From NCBI GenBank assembly GCA_034927285.1, contig JAYFQF010000024.1:9421-73420 (forward strand): a stretch of 64,000 nt of DNA, written 5' to 3'. The number at the start of each line of letters is the position of its first letter. The stretch's first letter is position 1. Position numbers and translations under genes: made by a program. The DNA comes from Peptococcaceae bacterium. Its GTDB lineage: Bacteria > Bacillota > Peptococcia > DRI-13 > UBA5745. Positions 993 through 13,468 of the stretch are shown here, in pieces. The notes beneath the pieces were generated by a model. The model ran no database searches. It saw only the letters and a program-made list of their open reading frames with translations, and had not been told where the DNA came from.

Positions 993-1667
993 TCAAATTC
1001 CTAATGTTAGTTTAAGAGCAACACTTCCAAGAAGCCCCACAATTTCACCGTAAAACCAGCTATGCTTTTCTAGATGTCTACTGAGTCGCTCACGCAAAGA
1101 AGGTTTTGTCTCAATTTTTCCCGTGGCAGAGATTTGTTCGGCTATGGCCTTCACTTCTTCCAAAACAGTTAAGAGTTCAGCCTTATCCTCGCCACCTTTT
1201 TCCTCAATCATTTCTTCTATTTTAGTAACAGAATTATCAATGCTAAAGGTCGAATTGACAACATCACCGAAAACAACATTACCACCTTGGGCATTTATCG
1301 TGCCAATATTATATACATGACCAGTGGACATGCTTGCCATCGCCTCTCCTTTCTCGCATTTTTCTTGGTAGGCAACCTTACTCATAAAATGCAGTTCTTT
1401 AAACCAACCGGACTTTGTAGGCAAGTCGATTTCTTCATCAAAATAAATCTCATATGTTTCAAAGATAGCCGCTAATTCACTCTTGACCTTCTCATAAGCA
1501 GAGTACCCGCTTCTGTCAGGTATGTAAATCTGTACGCCAAGCGTATCTCCGCTTAACTGCTTATGATCAATACTGCCATTTGGAAGATGGCTTCCCCAAA
1601 AATAAAAGCTTAAATGATTTGATTGTGCGCACTTGACTACTTTCTGCTTCAATTCTTCCGTAAGTAT
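993..1667 (-). CDS. Hypothetical protein (~224 aa) inserted in BREX operon; probable ATA start at 1667 (ORF track uses TTG 1652); possible internal ATG start at 1340
   Basis: Frame is open from ATA 1667 (MLTEELKQKVV...), 8 nt after the GGAGG overlapping the pglX stop; an internal AAAGGAG-N5-ATG sits at 1340. Confidence 0.7.
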   Translation of the reverse strand: MLTEELKQKVVKCAQSNHLSFYFWGSHLPNGSIDHKQLSGDTLGVQIYIPDRSGYSAYEKVKSELAAIFETYEIYFDEEIDLPTKSGWFKELHFMSKVAYQEKCEKGEAMASMSTGHVYNIGTINAQGGNVVFGDVVNSTFSIDNSVTKIEEMIEEKGGEDKAELLTVLEEVKAIAEQISATGKIETKPSLRERLSRHLEKHSWFYGEIVGLLGSVALKLTLGI

Positions 1668-1679
1668 AGATCATCCCTC

Positions 1680-4600
1680 CTAACCAATCTTCGCTAATAA
1701 ATCCATCGGCACTGTCTTACCGTTATCCATTGGCACTTTCACGCCCTGGAATTTGGTATAGTTGACTTTCACGCCATCATCAAGATCAAGTTCAATCTGC
1801 TGGTGAGCAATGTGGGCTACTACCTGATCATAGGTACGGCATTCCTCAATCTTCCTTTGCAGGGCCTCAATTTCCTTACGGTAAGTGGCTTTCTCTCGGG
1901 TATCGTTGGTGGCACCAGACAGCATTTCCAACCGGCCGATTTCTGCCTCATATTTGCGCTGAAGTGGATGGAGATAATCAGTACGTGCTTGTGCAATCGT
2001 ATTTTTGTCATAGCGATGTAGGTAGAAAAGCGCTTTAAAACCGTCCTCCTTACCGCTGTCTAGCAGCCAGTAAATAGGACGCTTCTGATACACTTTGCAG
2101 TGATCCTTGTAAAAATCGTTCAAAAAATAGCGCCGTATTTTGTCTTTGGCCGAACCGTTCACATTGGGGTATAAGGCGCTGGCAATAAAGTTCAGGTTTT
2201 CACCCAGTGTGGAATCGCCGTATACGACGCGGACAAACTCAGTGAAACGCACCACAATATCGTCGTTAAAATAGTCAGCAGAACCAATCGGAACAATATT
2301 GTCTTCATCTGGCTCAAATGAGCAAGCAGTCCATTTATCGTGATCCTTAAACTCAGGATAATGATATGGAGCCGATGAAATCCCAGCATATCCTGACCCA
2401 GAGGGTAATTCACCATTCTCGTCACAGGGAGCTTGCCCTTTATAGCGATGATATATTGAGTTGAAATTACCGCCGGCAAATACAAGCCCCGGCTTACCCA
2501 GACTATAGCGCCCAAACATACAGCCAACAGCATAGGATAGAAAACTGCGGATGTCGCGGCCAAGATCGGCGTGACGTATAGTAACGTCCTTGTCCTCAAC
2601 TTCCGAGGTTAATTCGTCCTTCAATCCGTATATATCGATGAAAATACGGTTGAGATATTCTTCGTTGGCTTTGAGTTTGGCAAACTGTTCGTCAGTAAAG
2701 CGTTCCCAAGTGTTAAAAGCCTGTGCTATTGGCGCAGCGCCCTCACTCCACTCAATAACATTGGGGCCTTCAACGATGTCATCCGCATACATCAATGGGA
2801 CAGCTTCGTAATTAACTTTAAAGGCGACCAGCGGATGGGTTTTGAAGTCCCATGAGGTTTCAAAAGCATCCCAATCAATTTTAGCTATGTTAATGTTTTG
2901 TTCAATCAATATATTCATCTGATTTTCCAAGTCACCATAGGATAGTAGTGGGATTTTTGCCAAATCACCAATATTAAAATGCAGTGAGGGACAGAGAACA
3001 TCAAGTATAAGTTTACTTACAGTACTGTTCAAAAAACCTACAACATAATTGATGTGTTGCTCTCCAAACAAACATAGGCCAGCAGTCGAAAAAATAAACC
3101 CATAATCAAAGTGTCGTAAACCAATCTGTCCAGTTGATATATCTGTCCATGTAAACCCGGAGCGAAAATAGTAGCTCTTATTTCTGATTGATGCGCGACC
3201 TGTTACTTGTATTTCATTGCCATCATTTTCCCAATTGATAACAAGAAAGTTATTCCCGTACCATTTTCTTGTTTGTCCACCATTATTAAATGGAAACCAT
3301 TTTTTTTCACGCATAACATGCTGCATATCTTTGGTAGGATACGCAAATTTTGAAATATCAATTTCGAACCAATTCCGCAAAAATCTATCATTATTTGCAG
3401 TGGAAATTCCTACGCAAAAATCAACTACATCACCAAATTTATATTGCGAGTCGAATGCCTTTAAAATTGCGTTCTTAGTCCAATACGCAACAGGTTTTCC
3501 GGGTATTGTTTCAAAATCTGAATTTTTTCTAGCGTAGCGATTTTTCCCATGAATAAATGCTTTTTCCTTGGAAGACTGACAATTATAATCGACAAGGCGA
3601 AAATAAGTTCCAAGGTATTGAGGAATATGACTATTCTGTATGACAAACGCTGTGGTTTGTACAACCTCGCCGCTTATTTCATCAAAGGCCTTTGCACCTA
3701 AATGAACCATGTTGACGATATTGCGTTGAAGCAGTTCTTTTCGTAATTTATCGTAACTTGAAAAGAACATCCAAGCATGTTGTGTAATCATTGCTTGATA
3801 GGCGTTTGGCTTCAGTAACTCGTGGCATTTTTCAATAAATACGGCAAACATATCTGCTTTTCCGTCAGGATAGTTCTTTTTGACATACTCTGATAGTTTT
3901 GCTCCCATACCGCCGCCACCCATATACGGCGGATTTGTCACAACCACATCGTATTTCTGGGTCAAAATCTCGGCGATATCCAATATTTCTAGCAATACTT
4001 CCTGTGCATGAGAAATATCTTGGGCATCCATATGAATCTGGACGGGGCATATAGCCTTCATAAACTGGCGCAGCTTGTCATAATTCAACTTTCGCTCAAT
4101 TTTCAGGATAGAACCGTATTCCCGCGCATCGGCGAACAAATCAATCAGATAGCCAAGGCCCTCTTTACACTCGTTTTGATCGGTTTCGCTCATACCTTCA
4201 CCCATGTAGTCCAGAGGATACCGCTGTACTCCGTCGGATTCAATCACAGCGTAGACATGCGGCTGGGGAATGCTCTCGCCATCCTTCGGTCGGAAGAAAC
4301 GGCGGTTATAACTACGGGCTTTCATCATCAAGGCAAAATAGGCAAGCTGAGCTGCGCGCCCGTCAATGTCCAGACCGTAGATATTGTTCCGCAATATCAG
4401 CCCCGGGATTTCGCGCTCCGCATAGCCCTGGCTGAAATATATCTGAAACAACACATCAAAAGCGTACACCAAAATATGCCCGCTCCCCATACAAGGGTCG
4501 ATAATTTTTATTTGTGCGGGGTTTTCAATTCTGTATTGCTGTTCAAGTTCCTTTAATTGGCGCTCAACCTCAGGTTCCTGTCCGGCTTCGTCAACATAGT

Positions 4601-5483
4601 AAGTCCACAGTTCGCGCAGAGCATCTTCCGCGTTGCCACATGCCAAACCCAGGGGGCAATAAGTAAGCCACAACCGCCCAAGGCTGTTTTCCACCATATA
4701 TTTTACAATCCATTCCGGCGTGAAAAGCTGAGTGGCGGCGGGGATGGTTTCCTTGTTAATTTTTACGTTCTTTTTCAATGCAGCGAAAACTTCATCTTTT
4801 TTCTCGGAGATATAATACTGGTATAGCCAGCCGATAATCTGCACCTGATCCTTGAAATCGTCCTCCTTGATGGCATTGACCAGATCATGGACAATGCCGC
4901 CTCTTTGATATAAAGAATCCGGGAGCAGCAACTCGGTATAGTCATTGATTTTCTGGAACATACCCGGCAGAATTTCATGCAGGGCATTGCACTGAGAAAT
5001 CAGGATGTACTTGTACAGCTTTTCAGAAGCACCGGGGGCGGTGTCGGCGCGAAGTCGAGCGATTTCATCCTGATTTACATAGGGTAGCCGCTCGGCCTCA
5101 CGCATGGCGTCCGGTTCTGCTCTCCCCGGTTCGGCGCTGGAGAGGATACGGATGCCAGAGGGCAAATATTCGTTGATTTCCATATAGCGTAGTGCAATCA
5201 GGCGGTTAAACCATGTGTAAGCAACTTCCTCCAGTACATGGCTGAACGCCTTTTCATTGTCCATTTCGCCGCCGAGGTGGGCAAGGTAAGCAATCAATTT
5301 TAAACGGGCTTCCATTTGTTTGTCAGTCAGAAAAATGCCATCCGCGCGCAGTTTCGTTGCCGCAACTTTAGGTAGCTCCGCGCCTTCCTCATAGATATAC
5401 AAGGATGCCATTTTTGTTCTGACCACATCTATCAACTTCCGGCGCGTCGCTACCGCATAGTTTTTGATTGCTGTTTTATCCAT
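1680..5483 (-). CDS. pglX: BREX-1 adenine-specific DNA methyltransferase PglX (BrxX)
   Basis: 1267 aa; motif I DPCMGSGHIL, motif IV NPPY, TQLFTPEWIVKYMVENSLG, WDAFETSWDF, C-terminal IELDLDDGVKVNY; follows brxC. Confidence 0.95.
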   Translation of the reverse strand: MDKTAIKNYAVATRRKLIDVVRTKMASLYIYEEGAELPKVAATKLRADGIFLTDKQMEARLKLIAYLAHLGGEMDNEKAFSHVLEEVAYTWFNRLIALRYMEINEYLPSGIRILSSAEPGRAEPDAMREAERLPYVNQDEIARLRADTAPGASEKLYKYILISQCNALHEILPGMFQKINDYTELLLPDSLYQRGGIVHDLVNAIKEDDFKDQVQIIGWLYQYYISEKKDEVFAALKKNVKINKETIPAATQLFTPEWIVKYMVENSLGRLWLTYCPLGLACGNAEDALRELWTYYVDEAGQEPEVERQLKELEQQYRIENPAQIKIIDPCMGSGHILVYAFDVLFQIYFSQGYAEREIPGLILRNNIYGLDIDGRAAQLAYFALMMKARSYNRRFFRPKDGESIPQPHVYAVIESDGVQRYPLDYMGEGMSETDQNECKEGLGYLIDLFADAREYGSILKIERKLNYDKLRQFMKAICPVQIHMDAQDISHAQEVLLEILDIAEILTQKYDVVVTNPPYMGGGGMGAKLSEYVKKNYPDGKADMFAVFIEKCHELLKPNAYQAMITQHAWMFFSSYDKLRKELLQRNIVNMVHLGAKAFDEISGEVVQTTAFVIQNSHIPQYLGTYFRLVDYNCQSSKEKAFIHGKNRYARKNSDFETIPGKPVAYWTKNAILKAFDSQYKFGDVVDFCVGISTANNDRFLRNWFEIDISKFAYPTKDMQHVMREKKWFPFNNGGQTRKWYGNNFLVINWENDGNEIQVTGRASIRNKSYYFRSGFTWTDISTGQIGLRHFDYGFIFSTAGLCLFGEQHINYVVGFLNSTVSKLILDVLCPSLHFNIGDLAKIPLLSYGDLENQMNILIEQNINIAKIDWDAFETSWDFKTHPLVAFKVNYEAVPLMYADDIVEGPNVIEWSEGAAPIAQAFNTWERFTDEQFAKLKANEEYLNRIFIDIYGLKDELTSEVEDKDVTIRHADLGRDIRSFLSYAVGCMFGRYSLGKPGLVFAGGNFNSIYHRYKGQAPCDENGELPSGSGYAGISSAPYHYPEFKDHDKWTACSFEPDEDNIVPIGSADYFNDDIVVRFTEFVRVVYGDSTLGENLNFIASALYPNVNGSAKDKIRRYFLNDFYKDHCKVYQKRPIYWLLDSGKEDGFKALFYLHRYDKNTIAQARTDYLHPLQRKYEAEIGRLEMLSGATNDTREKATYRKEIEALQRKIEECRTYDQVVAHIAHQQIELDLDDGVKVNYTKFQGVKVPMDNGKTVPMDLLAKIG

Positions 5484-10637: not shown

Positions 10638-12257
10638 TTAAACCCTATTCATATTCCATTTCCGTGCGGCTGTTGCTATATTTAGGAACTGATATTCCTG
10701 CTCATGGATAAACTCCACCAGCACCTCTTTGTCCTGCCCCACTGTAATCCGATTAACCAAGTAGGCGAGGAGCGGACGGGTCACACTTATAAATCCGAAA
10801 TATGGTTTGTATCGTTCAAGCCATCCAAAGAATTCTTCCGCATTAGGAGGGGCCTGCATATTCGCTTCAGTTTTTTTTATAGAGACCTCAAGGCGATTGC
10901 ATTCCTGCATATAATGCTTTCGCATAGCTTCCAGTTCCTGCAGGGTATGCGATTGTATGATGATTTCATCCTGTAGGCCGTCAAGACAACGATGGCGTAA
11001 TTTCAATTCTTTAGTTAATGCTCCGATTTTTTTGACGGCCATCTGATTTTTCAAGGAGCGGAGTTGGGACATATCCATGGATGGCGCTAACTTATAAATC
11101 CGCAGGACGTCATCCATACGCAACTGTATTTGTCGGAATACTTCATTCTCCAAGTCCGTTTTTGAAATTCGATGTGACGGGCAAGGTATGTTAGCCACAT
11201 TCCTACCGTTGCATACATAATAGTGATATGTCTTTTTTGAAGAGCAATTTTGCTTTTGTATCATGTTTCTGCCACAGCGTTTACAACGCACAAAACCCGA
11301 CAAAGGTGACACTGATTTTTCTCCCGGCGAGCTTCTGGAATCCATCAAGAGGAGTCTTTGCACGGCCTCGAATTGGTGAAGTGGAATGATTGCTTCATGA
11401 GCATTTTCAATGCATACCCATTGACTCCGTAACGTTTGTACTCTACGCCGCGCTTTGAAATAAGGTTTCTGGCTTTTTCCCTGTTCCAGCCGACCTGTGT
11501 AGACTCTGTTTGACAAGATGCGTATAACCGCTATCGGCGTCCATTTTGCTGAGTCATTTTTCTGAAAGCCGGTGCAGTATGCGCCGGAAAATGACTTTTT
11601 ATGTTCGGCTGGCGAGGGGATGCCTAAGCTCTCCAATCGTTCCGCCATAGCTGCCGCACTCATACCGTCAAGCTTCCATTGATAAATACTATGTACGGTT
11701 TCAGCTGCCTGTGGATCCGGTTTGAGACGGTATTTGTCCGTTTGTGATTTTCGGTAGCCATACGGCGAAAAAGCATTCAAATATTTGCCTTCCCTATATC
11801 CCTGCTGAAGAGAGCTCTTTATATTCTGTGATAAATTGCGTAAATACGCTTCATTAACGACATTGCGAACGCTTAACATAAAAGAATCATTATGATCAGG
11901 GGCCTTCATAAAATCAATTCGCTCAAAAACAGAAATAAACCGAACTCCAAGAGATGGGAAGATTTTCTGGATGTAACGTCCCGCATCAATATAATTTCGG
12001 CTGAACCGAGAAAGATCGCGCACTGCCACGCAGTCAATTCTTCCTTGTTCTATATCACGCAACATTTCTCGAAAAGCTGGACGATCGCAGTGTAATCCGC
12101 TGTATCCATCATCAATTTTTACAGTGCAAATCCGTACATTCCCAAGTGCATTCAGATGTTTCGTTACAATAAATTCTTGGCTTTCAAGCGTATCCTCTCC
12201 GTTATCTTTGGAAATTCGGATATAAATGGCGGCTTTCCATATTTTCAATTCGCTCAT
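10638..12257 (-). CDS. Large serine recombinase (resolvase + recombinase + Zn-ribbon/coiled-coil)
   Basis: 539 aa; AAIYIRIS catalytic motif, DDGYSG, RPAFREML, DLSRFSRN, CKRCG...YYVC zinc ribbon. Confidence 0.92.
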   Translation of the reverse strand: MSELKIWKAAIYIRISKDNGEDTLESQEFIVTKHLNALGNVRICTVKIDDGYSGLHCDRPAFREMLRDIEQGRIDCVAVRDLSRFSRNYIDAGRYIQKIFPSLGVRFISVFERIDFMKAPDHNDSFMLSVRNVVNEAYLRNLSQNIKSSLQQGYREGKYLNAFSPYGYRKSQTDKYRLKPDPQAAETVHSIYQWKLDGMSAAAMAERLESLGIPSPAEHKKSFSGAYCTGFQKNDSAKWTPIAVIRILSNRVYTGRLEQGKSQKPYFKARRRVQTLRSQWVCIENAHEAIIPLHQFEAVQRLLLMDSRSSPGEKSVSPLSGFVRCKRCGRNMIQKQNCSSKKTYHYYVCNGRNVANIPCPSHRISKTDLENEVFRQIQLRMDDVLRIYKLAPSMDMSQLRSLKNQMAVKKIGALTKELKLRHRCLDGLQDEIIIQSHTLQELEAMRKHYMQECNRLEVSIKKTEANMQAPPNAEEFFGWLERYKPYFGFISVTRPLLAYLVNRITVGQDKEVLVEFIHEQEYQFLNIATAARKWNMNRV

Positions 12258-13468
12258 ATACTCTTATCATTCCTTAAAATTTCGCTGTGCTCCATCAAAG
12301 GCAGCATATCCTCGCCAATGAAACAGCGTAGAAAATCCATGCAAGCATAATCACGGTTTCTTTCCATCTGGTTGATTTGCTGCACGATCCCCAAGCTGGA
12401 CAAAAGGTTAATTGCAGATGCCCCTGTGTTGTAAGAGATTCCGACCTTCTGTGCAACGGTATAGATGTCAAATATGGGATGCCGCTCAACACTATCATAA
12501 AAGGGATTGATTGCTTTTATAGATTTACCGCTTTTCCCAATCTTGGCAAGATTCTTTTCTCTAGTATGCAGCCACTTTTTAATCCCTTCCAAAGAATCAT
12601 TGGCAGCAAAGCTGATGGCTCTAATGTAGAACTTGATCCACTGTTCGTAGTCGCATTGGCGTCGAAGTGCGCTCATCCGATCAATGTATTCTACTTTATG
12701 CAAATTCAGATAATGAGACAAGCACAGGAGAGGGCTTGTTAATATTTTTTTATCCGCCAGAATCAGATATGGAAGAATTCTTCCTACAAGTCCGTTACCC
12801 GACATAAAGGGGTGTATCGTTTCGAACTGATAATGTGCGAGAGCCACCTTGATCAATACATCAATATCGTCATCTCGACGTATGAATTTTTCCAAGTCTC
12901 GCAGAGCACTCGGAAGCTGAGCTGGTGCGGTGGGATTATAAGTTAAAGGATAATTCGTTATAACTCTGATTTTTCCAATAAACATCTGTTCTGTTCTGAA
13001 TTTTCCCTGTTCTTCACTGTCGCCCTTCAAGATTAACTTCTTATGAATATCACATAGTAGCGCATTCTTGTATTGCGCTGTTTTTATTTTTTCCAGCCCA
13101 AGGCACATGGCTGAAACACAGCTTTTTATCGGGGCGGTTGTTCGATCCGTTTTGAGAGAGGTATCCAAAACATCATAAAGAGGCGCATTGGTCCCGTCAA
13201 TCTGGCAGGACAATATCGCCTCTTTTTGCAATATGATAGAGTTTACCGCAGCGATATTGGGAAGAAAACCGGACATGCCCTCAAGCTGTCCTAATAATCT
13301 ATGAGCCGTAGACAGAAGGCTTGCCAGTTCTGCGTCCATCTTTATTTTTAAATCCGTTGAAAGGGGATTCGGCGTAAATGTGTAATAATCTACGTCATCT
13401 TTTCCAGGCATACCCGGACAATACTGGCCGGATGTCCTATAAGACACCCATTCATCCATATTCATCAC
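12254..13468 (-). CDS. Fic family protein with degenerate catalytic motif
   Basis: 404 aa; AHYQFETIHPFMSGNGLVGR (canonical HPFxDGNGRxxR), N-terminal EAILSCQIDG; stop overlaps the recombinase start (ATGA). Confidence 0.88.
   Translation of the reverse strand: MMNMDEWVSYRTSGQYCPGMPGKDDVDYYTFTPNPLSTDLKIKMDAELASLLSTAHRLLGQLEGMSGFLPNIAAVNSIILQKEAILSCQIDGTNAPLYDVLDTSLKTDRTTAPIKSCVSAMCLGLEKIKTAQYKNALLCDIHKKLILKGDSEEQGKFRTEQMFIGKIRVITNYPLTYNPTAPAQLPSALRDLEKFIRRDDDIDVLIKVALAHYQFETIHPFMSGNGLVGRILPYLILADKKILTSPLLCLSHYLNLHKVEYIDRMSALRRQCDYEQWIKFYIRAISFAANDSLEGIKKWLHTREKNLAKIGKSGKSIKAINPFYDSVERHPIFDIYTVAQKVGISYNTGASAINLLSSLGIVQQINQMERNRDYACMDFLRCFIGEDMLPLMEHSEILRNDKSI

Follow-up and report, generated by a model that had tools for sequence, protein, structure and literature searches.

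A type 1 bacteriophage exclusion (BREX) operon of a Peptococcaceae bacterium carries two inserted genes, here called ORF-A and ORF-B (for open reading frame), between pglX, the gene of the BREX methyltransferase, and pglZ. The operon was analysed in a stretch of 64,000 nucleotides (nt) of assembly GCA_034927285.1 (contig JAYFQF010000024.1, positions 9,421-73,420, forward strand), hereafter the window, and all window features discussed below lie on its minus strand. Homology searches identified the last ~110 residues of ORF-A as a strongly conserved module, common to proteins with unrelated N-terminal parts, and we give an even chance to the reading that ORF-A is a single-chain sensor-effector abortive-infection protein that travels as a passenger in the pglX-pglZ cargo slot. 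The defence function, membrane action, self-association and sensing are what we infer. In such a scheme the N-terminal domain would perceive a phage-derived cue, the conserved strand motif would drive self-association of the module, and the hydrophobic tail would engage the cytoplasmic membrane and arrest or kill the infected cell, an action that would back up BREX.

Restriction and BREX operons are increasingly seen with a second, suicidal layer, set off once the first has been evaded; the layers known so far consist of nucleases, namely PrrC and the BREX backup nucleases, or of RonA, a tiny membrane protein. ORF-A adds a new family to this concept of effectors embedded in restriction and BREX operons, which also includes RloC, and would, if our reading is true, add a modular membrane-type effector with swappable sensor domains. 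Its relatives are found in gut Bacillota, Treponema and others, where they lie in BREX and type I, ISP and III operons as well as in prophages and on conjugative elements, and the family offers a concrete, testable candidate for a BREX backup.

A conserved C-terminal module behind exchangeable N-terminal domains

ORF-A occupies positions 993-1667 in the list of open reading frames, with 224 codons counted from an ATA and its stop codon at 995-993. An AlphaFold2 (AF2) model built on a 52-sequence alignment has a mean predicted local distance difference test score (pLDDT) of 86. The N-terminal domain (residues 1-96, positions 1380-1667), of alpha-beta-beta-alpha-beta-beta topology, is modelled at a pLDDT above 90; it is swappable within the family and presumed to serve in sensing or docking. 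It is followed by a Lys/Glu-rich linker helix (residues 97-115, positions 1323-1379) and then by the module, which begins with an N/G-rich strand motif, continues with three helices and ends in a hydrophobic tail of ~20 residues. In the family alignment the conserved N/G/S-rich strand motif, YNIGTINAQGGNVVFGDVVNSTFSIDNSV, covers residues 119-147 (positions 1227-1313). The helical part, delimited by the AF2 model and by conservation, spans residues 148-203 (positions 1059-1226) and includes IEEKGGEDK and HLEKH. The hydrophobic, tail-anchor-like C-terminal helix WFYGEIVGLLGSVALKLTLGI (residues 204-224, positions 996-1058) contains the invariant residues W204, Y206 and G214. In the model the strand motif appears as two short strands, and residues 115-140, which cover most of it, have a pLDDT below 50; four confident helices follow over residues 143-222, of which the first three (143-157, 159-182 and 189-199) reach a pLDDT of ~90 and the last is the hydrophobic tail.

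A search of 1.84 billion proteins with the module profile retrieved 217 representative clusters at E<=1e-3, and the module is C-terminal in essentially all matches listed. Its signatures are NIGxINAxGxNxVxGDVxNSxxSIDNS, IEEKGGEDKxEL and HLEKHGWFYG, followed by the hydrophobic end. Besides the three tail residues named above, G134, L165, H198 and H202 are invariant, and S139 and N145 nearly so. The N/G-rich motif, the helical region and the hydrophobic C-terminal helix that a preliminary description of this DNA, made from the sequence alone, had pointed out are thus all conserved, the motif strongly so, and the helices are modelled with high confidence. In a comparison of 115 family members, the tail that follows the invariant Trp comprises ~20 residues with ~1 charged residue.

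At least six kinds of N-terminal domain are found fused to the module. The alpha/beta (ferredoxin-like) domain of ORF-A also occurs at six other loci (L004, L001, L018, L024, L027 and L038; L numbers are our own locus labels). The commonest kind consists of a charged helix and a winged helix-turn-helix (wHTH)-like domain; the others are a double wHTH, a 498-residue part judged by eye to be helical-repeat-like, N-terminal transmembrane (TM) segments, and long coiled coils. Hosts include Lachnospiraceae, Oscillospiraceae, Christensenellaceae, Treponema, Muribaculaceae and Acidaminococcales. No close relative of ORF-A was found in 10 genomes of the same family or in a metagenome scan, the nearest full-length relative being ~45-48% identical, and a tblastn search of plasmids with the module gave no match.

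For ORF-A itself, searches of Pfam, NCBIfam, PHROGs and PADLOC gave no significant match; the module is likewise without a match in the first three of these, and its profile matched no PDB sequence below E=0.15. With PADLOC giving weak, non-significant matches alone for the family, the ORF-A family appears from these profile searches to be undescribed. For the N-terminal domain, Foldseek returned from the PDB nothing beyond generic permuted ferredoxin-like structures (circular permutants of S6, and GspM/PulM) at E>=1e-3. Among viral models (BFVD) it retrieved many phage tail terminator, tail completion and head-tail joining proteins; these matches are weak, with probabilities of ~1.0 but E values of 1e-3 to 1e-2, TM-scores of at most 0.56 and ~10% identity, and the PHROG profiles lend the domain no sequence support as a tail terminator or completion protein (gpU/DUF3168-type). 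We take the modelled likeness to phage tail folds as a lead, which, if real, would suggest a sensor that mimics a part of the phage tail.

Family members often follow methyltransferase and specificity genes

Gene neighbourhoods were counted over ~36 genome loci plus metagenome loci. The family gene directly follows a gene for HsdS, a type ISP/IIG enzyme, PglX, a type III Mod or a DUF499-HEPN protein in at least 18 of the ~36. HsdS lies upstream at L011, L012, L015, L022, L031, L043 and L039, and with one gene between at L009, L025 and L028; both hsdM-hsdS-X-hsdR and hsdR-hsdM-hsdS-X orders occur, X being the family gene. A type ISP/IIG enzyme (ResIII+Eco57I) precedes it at L023, L036, L037 and L042. 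In the window, L004 and L027 the gene stands between pglX and pglZ, and at L026 between type III mod and res. Across the family, the gap after the restriction-modification (R-M) or BREX gene is mostly 2-12 nt. A Pfam tally of 60 co-directional genes up to 2 positions upstream of the family gene gave Methylase_S 10 times, Eco57I 9, N6_Mtase 6, HsdM_N 4 and ResIII 4 times, and also holds TIR, Abi_C, GmrSD_N and OLD-type AAA_15/21 ATPases.

Other copies lie in defence or mobile settings. The gene at L001 and L018 is part of conjugative elements and adjoins relaxase genes, and at L024 it lies beside an OLD-type ATPase (Gabija-like pair). A prophage copy (L038, 3694-9578 of that locus) stands between tail-fibre genes (BppU_N, DUF4376) and the lysis cassette (Amidase_2, then a holin-like ORF), an interval that is the usual place of prophage-borne exclusion genes. 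A role of ORF-A as a holin was considered and dismissed: at L038 the multi-TM holin-like ORF that follows the amidase is a separate gene of 155 codons, and ORF-A has no Pfam or PHROGs holin match. At L020, L021 and L052 the gene lies between one for a DUF499 + HEPN_Swt1 protein upstream and a Gabija-like pair (AAA_15/AAA_21 + UvrD helicase) downstream, and this stretch is also filed as a viral contig in IMG/VR.

The kind of N-terminal domain goes with the host system: all three BREX loci have the ferredoxin-like domain, and all type I, ISP and III loci the wHTH type. The ferredoxin-like domain is not confined to BREX, and related loci do not count as independent. We also considered ORF-A as a core component of type 1 BREX and rejected this, as PADLOC gave no BREX component match for it, BREX accounts for 3 of ~40 family loci, and one BREX locus (L045) is without ORF-A.

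Function and relation to known systems

The variable N-terminal domain, the constant C-terminal module and the defence-island context fit the effector idea, which had already been raised in the preliminary description. Several points weigh against the sensor-effector reading. Neither experiment nor homology ties ORF-A to a characterised effector; the hydropathy of the tail in its best 17-residue window (family mean 1.39, ORF-A 1.65) is marginal for a TM segment, so that the tail could be a buried helix of the bundle; and the fold of the N-terminal domain is generic. ORF-A may not be expressed in this strain (see below). Many of the loci are annotated by crude in-house gene calls alone, and the locus counts overstate the support because related loci are not independent.

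PrrC and RloC are anticodon nucleases encoded in type I R-M operons, PrrC being an ABC-type NTPase fused to a nuclease. They share with ORF-A the genomic logic of a suicide effector that lies between hsdS and hsdR and is co-expressed with them. ORF-A differs from them in that it has no NTPase or nuclease domain (no match in Pfam or NCBIfam) and in its predicted action on the membrane.

A closer comparison is offered by RonA of the Ronin system of E. coli ECOR55, a 61-residue TM protein that is toxic alone and suppressed by HsdMS; its triggers are Ocr, ArdA and Aop1, and some Ronin loci are BREX-linked (10.1101/2023.04.06.535777). RonA is small, is encoded tight to hsdS/hsdM, has one predicted membrane helix, for which the tail of ORF-A is a marginal candidate, and is a cell-death effector that backs up restriction, as is proposed for ORF-A. 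Tight linkage to a methyltransferase or specificity gene, as in Ronin, is seen at 18 or more loci of the ORF-A family, with several exceptions that have no methyltransferase nearby. RonA, compared here by description, has no extra domains in its 61 residues, whereas in the 224 residues of ORF-A the tail is preceded by an N-terminal domain, the conserved strand motif and a bundle of helices, and its family is also found away from methyltransferases.

The RonA precedent (10.1101/2023.04.06.535777) also leads to the main rival, which we rate as rather unlikely: ORF-A would be a guard like RonA or the PrrC of EcoprrI, caged by the PglX (or HsdMS) complex and released to kill when an anti-restriction or anti-BREX protein of the phage disables that complex. 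The gene directly follows the methyltransferase or specificity gene wherever the nuclease gene lies, in both hsd orders, the gaps of 2-12 nt suggest translational coupling, and the N-terminal domains divide between BREX loci (ferredoxin-like) and type I, ISP and III loci (wHTH). On the other hand, the N-terminal domain found at the BREX loci is also seen where no methyltransferase gene is close by, in conjugative elements (L001, L018), in a prophage (L038) and beside a Gabija-like pair (L024). The three BREX loci may moreover stem from a single insertion.

The same tight linkage to methyltransferase and specificity genes, together with a wHTH-like domain as the commonest N-terminal part and the tail-anchor-like helix, could be taken to mean that the protein is no defence effector at all, and is instead a membrane tether, assembly factor or regulator of methyltransferase complexes. 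We regard this as very improbable. Copies without a methyltransferase lie in prophages, integrative and conjugative elements and Gabija neighbourhoods, a variable N-terminal domain joined to a constant C-terminal module is the usual pattern of conflict-system effectors, and the family is patchy, being absent from most BREX and R-M operons.

Effectors have been described within BREX loci as well. A survey of BREX (Nucleic Acids Res. 2026, PMC12839542), in the passages that were searched, reports auxiliary or backup nuclease effectors embedded in these loci, and ORF-A resembles them as a putative extra effector within a core BREX operon that would form a second, possibly abortive, layer. In the same passages neither the ORF-A family nor any membrane-type effector was found, and the words 'transmembrane' and 'amyloid' are absent from that text.

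Among abortive-infection proteins, AbiTi of the lactococcal two-gene AbiT system (PADLOC PDLC02333) gave weak matches in 13 of 52 family members, the best at E ~1e-3, between their helical part and AbiTi positions 40-96. An AbiTi-like protein (L053, 294 aa) has a double wHTH, an N/G/S-rich stretch, helices and a hydrophobic tail, a likeness that is one of architecture only. Homology to AbiTi was rejected: ORF-A gave no match in a search of its own genome at E<=0.01, a search of 400 genomes was negative, and hhalign gave the module a probability of 0.4% against the AbiTi-like protein. Weak PADLOC matches to PDC-M14B were likewise not upheld on follow-up.

The strand motif and the question of amyloid signalling

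In BASS, RHIM and HET-s signalling the same short motif occurs in two partner proteins, usually encoded by adjacent genes, and is terminal in each. ORF-A resembles these systems in having a short, conserved, N/G-rich segment that is predicted to be unstructured as a monomer, and the preliminary description had raised a possible amyloid-forming effector by analogy with RHIM and BASS motifs. On this reading the motif would form a beta-arch or beta-solenoid fibril that propagates activation. The 29-residue motif is indeed very strongly conserved, rich in N, G and S, with alternating hydrophobic residues, and its pLDDT stays below 50 between two confident domains despite the 52-sequence alignment. 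The rest of what we found points away from such signalling. The motif of ORF-A is internal (residues 119-147 of 224), and no partner gene carries it: with a hidden Markov model of the motif alone, ORF-A was the sole carrier in its genome (the next best match had E=0.58), and in more than 40 neighbourhoods no carrier was found besides the module genes. The Pfam families of amyloid motifs (RHIM, HET-s and related; BASS profiles are not among them) gave no match at E<=1 to ORF-A and 14 module sequences. ORF-A was accordingly rejected as a member of a BASS-, RHIM- or HET-s-type pair, and amyloid-like signalling in general appears improbable.

The low AF2 confidence is compatible with fibril formation or with folding on assembly and is not diagnostic, since it equally fits a partner-binding strand or a membrane-inserting hairpin. 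The motif may self-assemble, or may equally bind a partner or insert into the membrane, and the role of the 29 residues in any of the three is directly testable. As a long shot, the motif might be a self-templating beta-arch, by which the module would polymerise and drive its tail helices into the membrane; ORF-A would then be a one-protein, prion-like abortive-infection switch carried in restriction and BREX operons of gut anaerobes, and its N-terminal domain might mimic a phage tail terminator and so sense tail assembly.

The start of ORF-A

The features that had been described at the start of ORF-A and within it (the GGAGG, the ATA at 1667, the ATG at 1674 with its 35-codon frame, and the AAAGGAG-N5-ATG at 1340 with a product of 115 residues) are all present in the sequence. 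The GGAGG, a Shine-Dalgarno (SD) sequence at 1676-1680, overlaps the pglX stop codon (TAG, 1682-1680). The frame of ORF-A opens after an in-frame TGA (1673-1671), and the ATA (1665-1667) stands where the start is expected, 8 nt past the GGAGG and 12 nt past the pglX stop. A TTG (1650-1652) is the first canonical start in this frame; it lies 23 nt from the SD and is the start in the database gene call (P0001, 219 aa). Genome-wide, ATG stands 6-9 nt after GGAGG in 16-22% of open frames, an enrichment over the background of 2-3%, and is not enriched at 1 nt or beyond 12 nt. The spacing of the ATA is therefore optimal, and the spacings of ATG 1674 and TTG 1652 are not.

Homologues with the same N-terminal domain place their start 5-7 nt after the SD, with ATG at L018, L001, L027 and L038 and TTG at L004, so the ATA does occupy the position of the homologues' start codon. 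The L004 start lies 12 nt after the pglX stop, equal to the ATA of the window, and this gap matches the family norm, whereas the 27-nt gap implied by the TTG does not. As a start codon, ATA is not enriched anywhere else in the genome. Initiation at AUA in E. coli reaches ~1-2% of that at AUG (range 0.02-3%; 10.1101/063800). The ATA is either a very weak start or a crippled one; because of it, ORF-A would be made at a few percent of the normal level at most, or the allele would be a recently crippled one. The chance that the ATA is the physical start site, functional but weak or recently mutated, seems to us just short of even. Use of the TTG would be a somewhat unlikely solution, and an indel at the start, real or artefactual, an unlikely one.

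The ATG at 1674, 1 nt after the SD and 6 nt after the pglX stop, opens an out-of-frame ORF of 35 codons (1567-1674) that overlaps the start region of ORF-A. Ribosomes reinitiating after pglX would most easily enter this frame, which may have arisen by accident, may serve to decoy coupled ribosomes, or may be what is left of an original start that was frameshifted. A programmed frameshift from this ATG was rejected, since inspection of the sequence revealed no slippery site leading into the ORF-A frame.

A doubtful but real possibility, independent of the choice between effector and guard, is that this genome carries a silenced or broken allele, either through an ATG to ATA change or through insertion of 1 nt after ATG 1674, and that the change is a real, toxicity-relieving mutation or else an assembly error. 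The position specified by the SD lacks a canonical start, unlike ORF-B and pglZ, both of which have normal SD-ATG starts, and the lack of ATA enrichment in the genome agrees with a broken start. The ribosome-binding region of L018, GGAGTGATAGTCTATG, is near-identical to that of the window, GGAGGGATGATCTATA, with little more than the final G/A setting them apart; this would fit an ATG-to-ATA transition and is suggestive at best, because it involves 16 nt only, between proteins that are ~36% identical. For the insertion, the window reads ATG-A-TCT-ATA, which minus the A would give MSILTEELK, close to MSINLHAELK of L004. Against a broken allele, the 224-codon frame is otherwise intact and keeps all invariant family residues, there is no homopolymer at the site that would favour an indel error, and the ATG at 1674 would stand 1 nt from the SD. 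No other copy for comparison turned up in the 10 related genomes searched at family level. The ATA flags that this strain may carry a nearly silent, toxic gene.

The internal start site

Within the linker an AAAGGAG (1352-1346) is followed, after 5 nt, by an in-frame ATG (1340-1338; the whole site spans 1338-1352), which encodes Met110. Initiation here would yield the product of 115 residues, beginning MASMSTGHVYNIG, and the preliminary description had suggested that the gene makes two isoforms, a free C-terminal module beside the full-length protein. The geometry of the site is good and it lies exactly at the domain boundary. In long ORFs of this genome AGGAG or GGAGG stands 4-10 nt upstream of 1.35% of internal in-frame ATGs. 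For a gene that has some five Met codons in its interior this amounts to a chance of roughly 5-7%, and the internal site is unusual, not extreme. SD-like strings before a Met or Val of the linker also occur at L009, L035, L001 and L018. They are, however, expected there because the linker is rich in Lys and Glu and its codons are purine-rich, AAG-GAG strings arising from this composition.

Conservation speaks against the two isoforms, which we hold to be quite improbable. L004, the nearest BREX-embedded relative, has no Met at the site. A conserved Met before the motif was apparent in a first set of loci and vanished in a broader, less redundant set of 117 family representatives, where Met shows no enrichment (1-7% per position). 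The count of promoter-like sites near ORF-A is not above chance. Stand-alone genes that start at the internal Met had been named as a check, and the one candidate examined, a module of 111 residues at L026 (P0093), proved to be a frameshifted double-wHTH fusion in a long-read metagenome-assembled genome (MAG). In that locus (7463-8324 of L026, flanked by type III mod and res) the double-wHTH part is in one frame and, across an A-rich run, aaaaggaaacacaaaaagaaATG, the module is in another; the frameshift is either real or an error of assembly in the homopolymer.

ORF-B and the operon

ORF-A and ORF-B are inserts inside the BREX operon, as had been described for ORF-A. The gene order is brxA-brxB-brxC-pglX-[ORF-A]-[ORF-B]-pglZ, with pglX at 1680-5483 in the ORF list (PADLOC PglX, 1469 bits), brxC at 9124-5504 (BrxC domains in Pfam) and the 5' part of pglZ at 3-581 (PADLOC PglZ, 200 bits), from where it continues beyond the window edge; ORFs that match brxB and brxA in expected size and position lie beyond brxC. 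The gaps are 12 nt between pglX and ORF-A, 9 nt between ORF-A and ORF-B, and 12 nt between ORF-B and pglZ, and no minus-strand terminator was found. The G+C content is 40% in ORF-A and 44-46% in the BREX genes vs 54% in the genome, and the whole BREX island was therefore probably acquired horizontally.

ORF-B (594-983, 129 aa), an independent accessory gene in the same slot, belongs to a separate, highly conserved family of ~125 residues; its 34 homologues, which range from Bacillota to a deltaproteobacterial MAG, share 39-72% identity with it, and most of them 60-72%. Its AF2 model has a pLDDT of 84; no PDB fold match and no Pfam family were found for it. ORF-B occurs without ORF-A between PglX and PglZ at L045 and after a pair of SNF2 and type IIG methyltransferase genes at L046. 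It is therefore no dedicated partner of ORF-A, and the idea that it is its antitoxin was dropped; it may well be a methyltransferase-linked accessory of its own, so far undescribed. At L004 the homologues of ORF-A and ORF-B are followed by a third passenger between pglX and pglZ (2886-3947 of that locus), a protein of 353 residues with a ScoMcrA_N domain, and because of this third passenger we regard the pglX-pglZ slot as a variable cargo site. Beyond brxA in the window (10638-13468) lie an ORF of 539 codons that looks like a large serine recombinase from its sequence features and another of 404 codons that, on reading its sequence, is possibly Fic-like.

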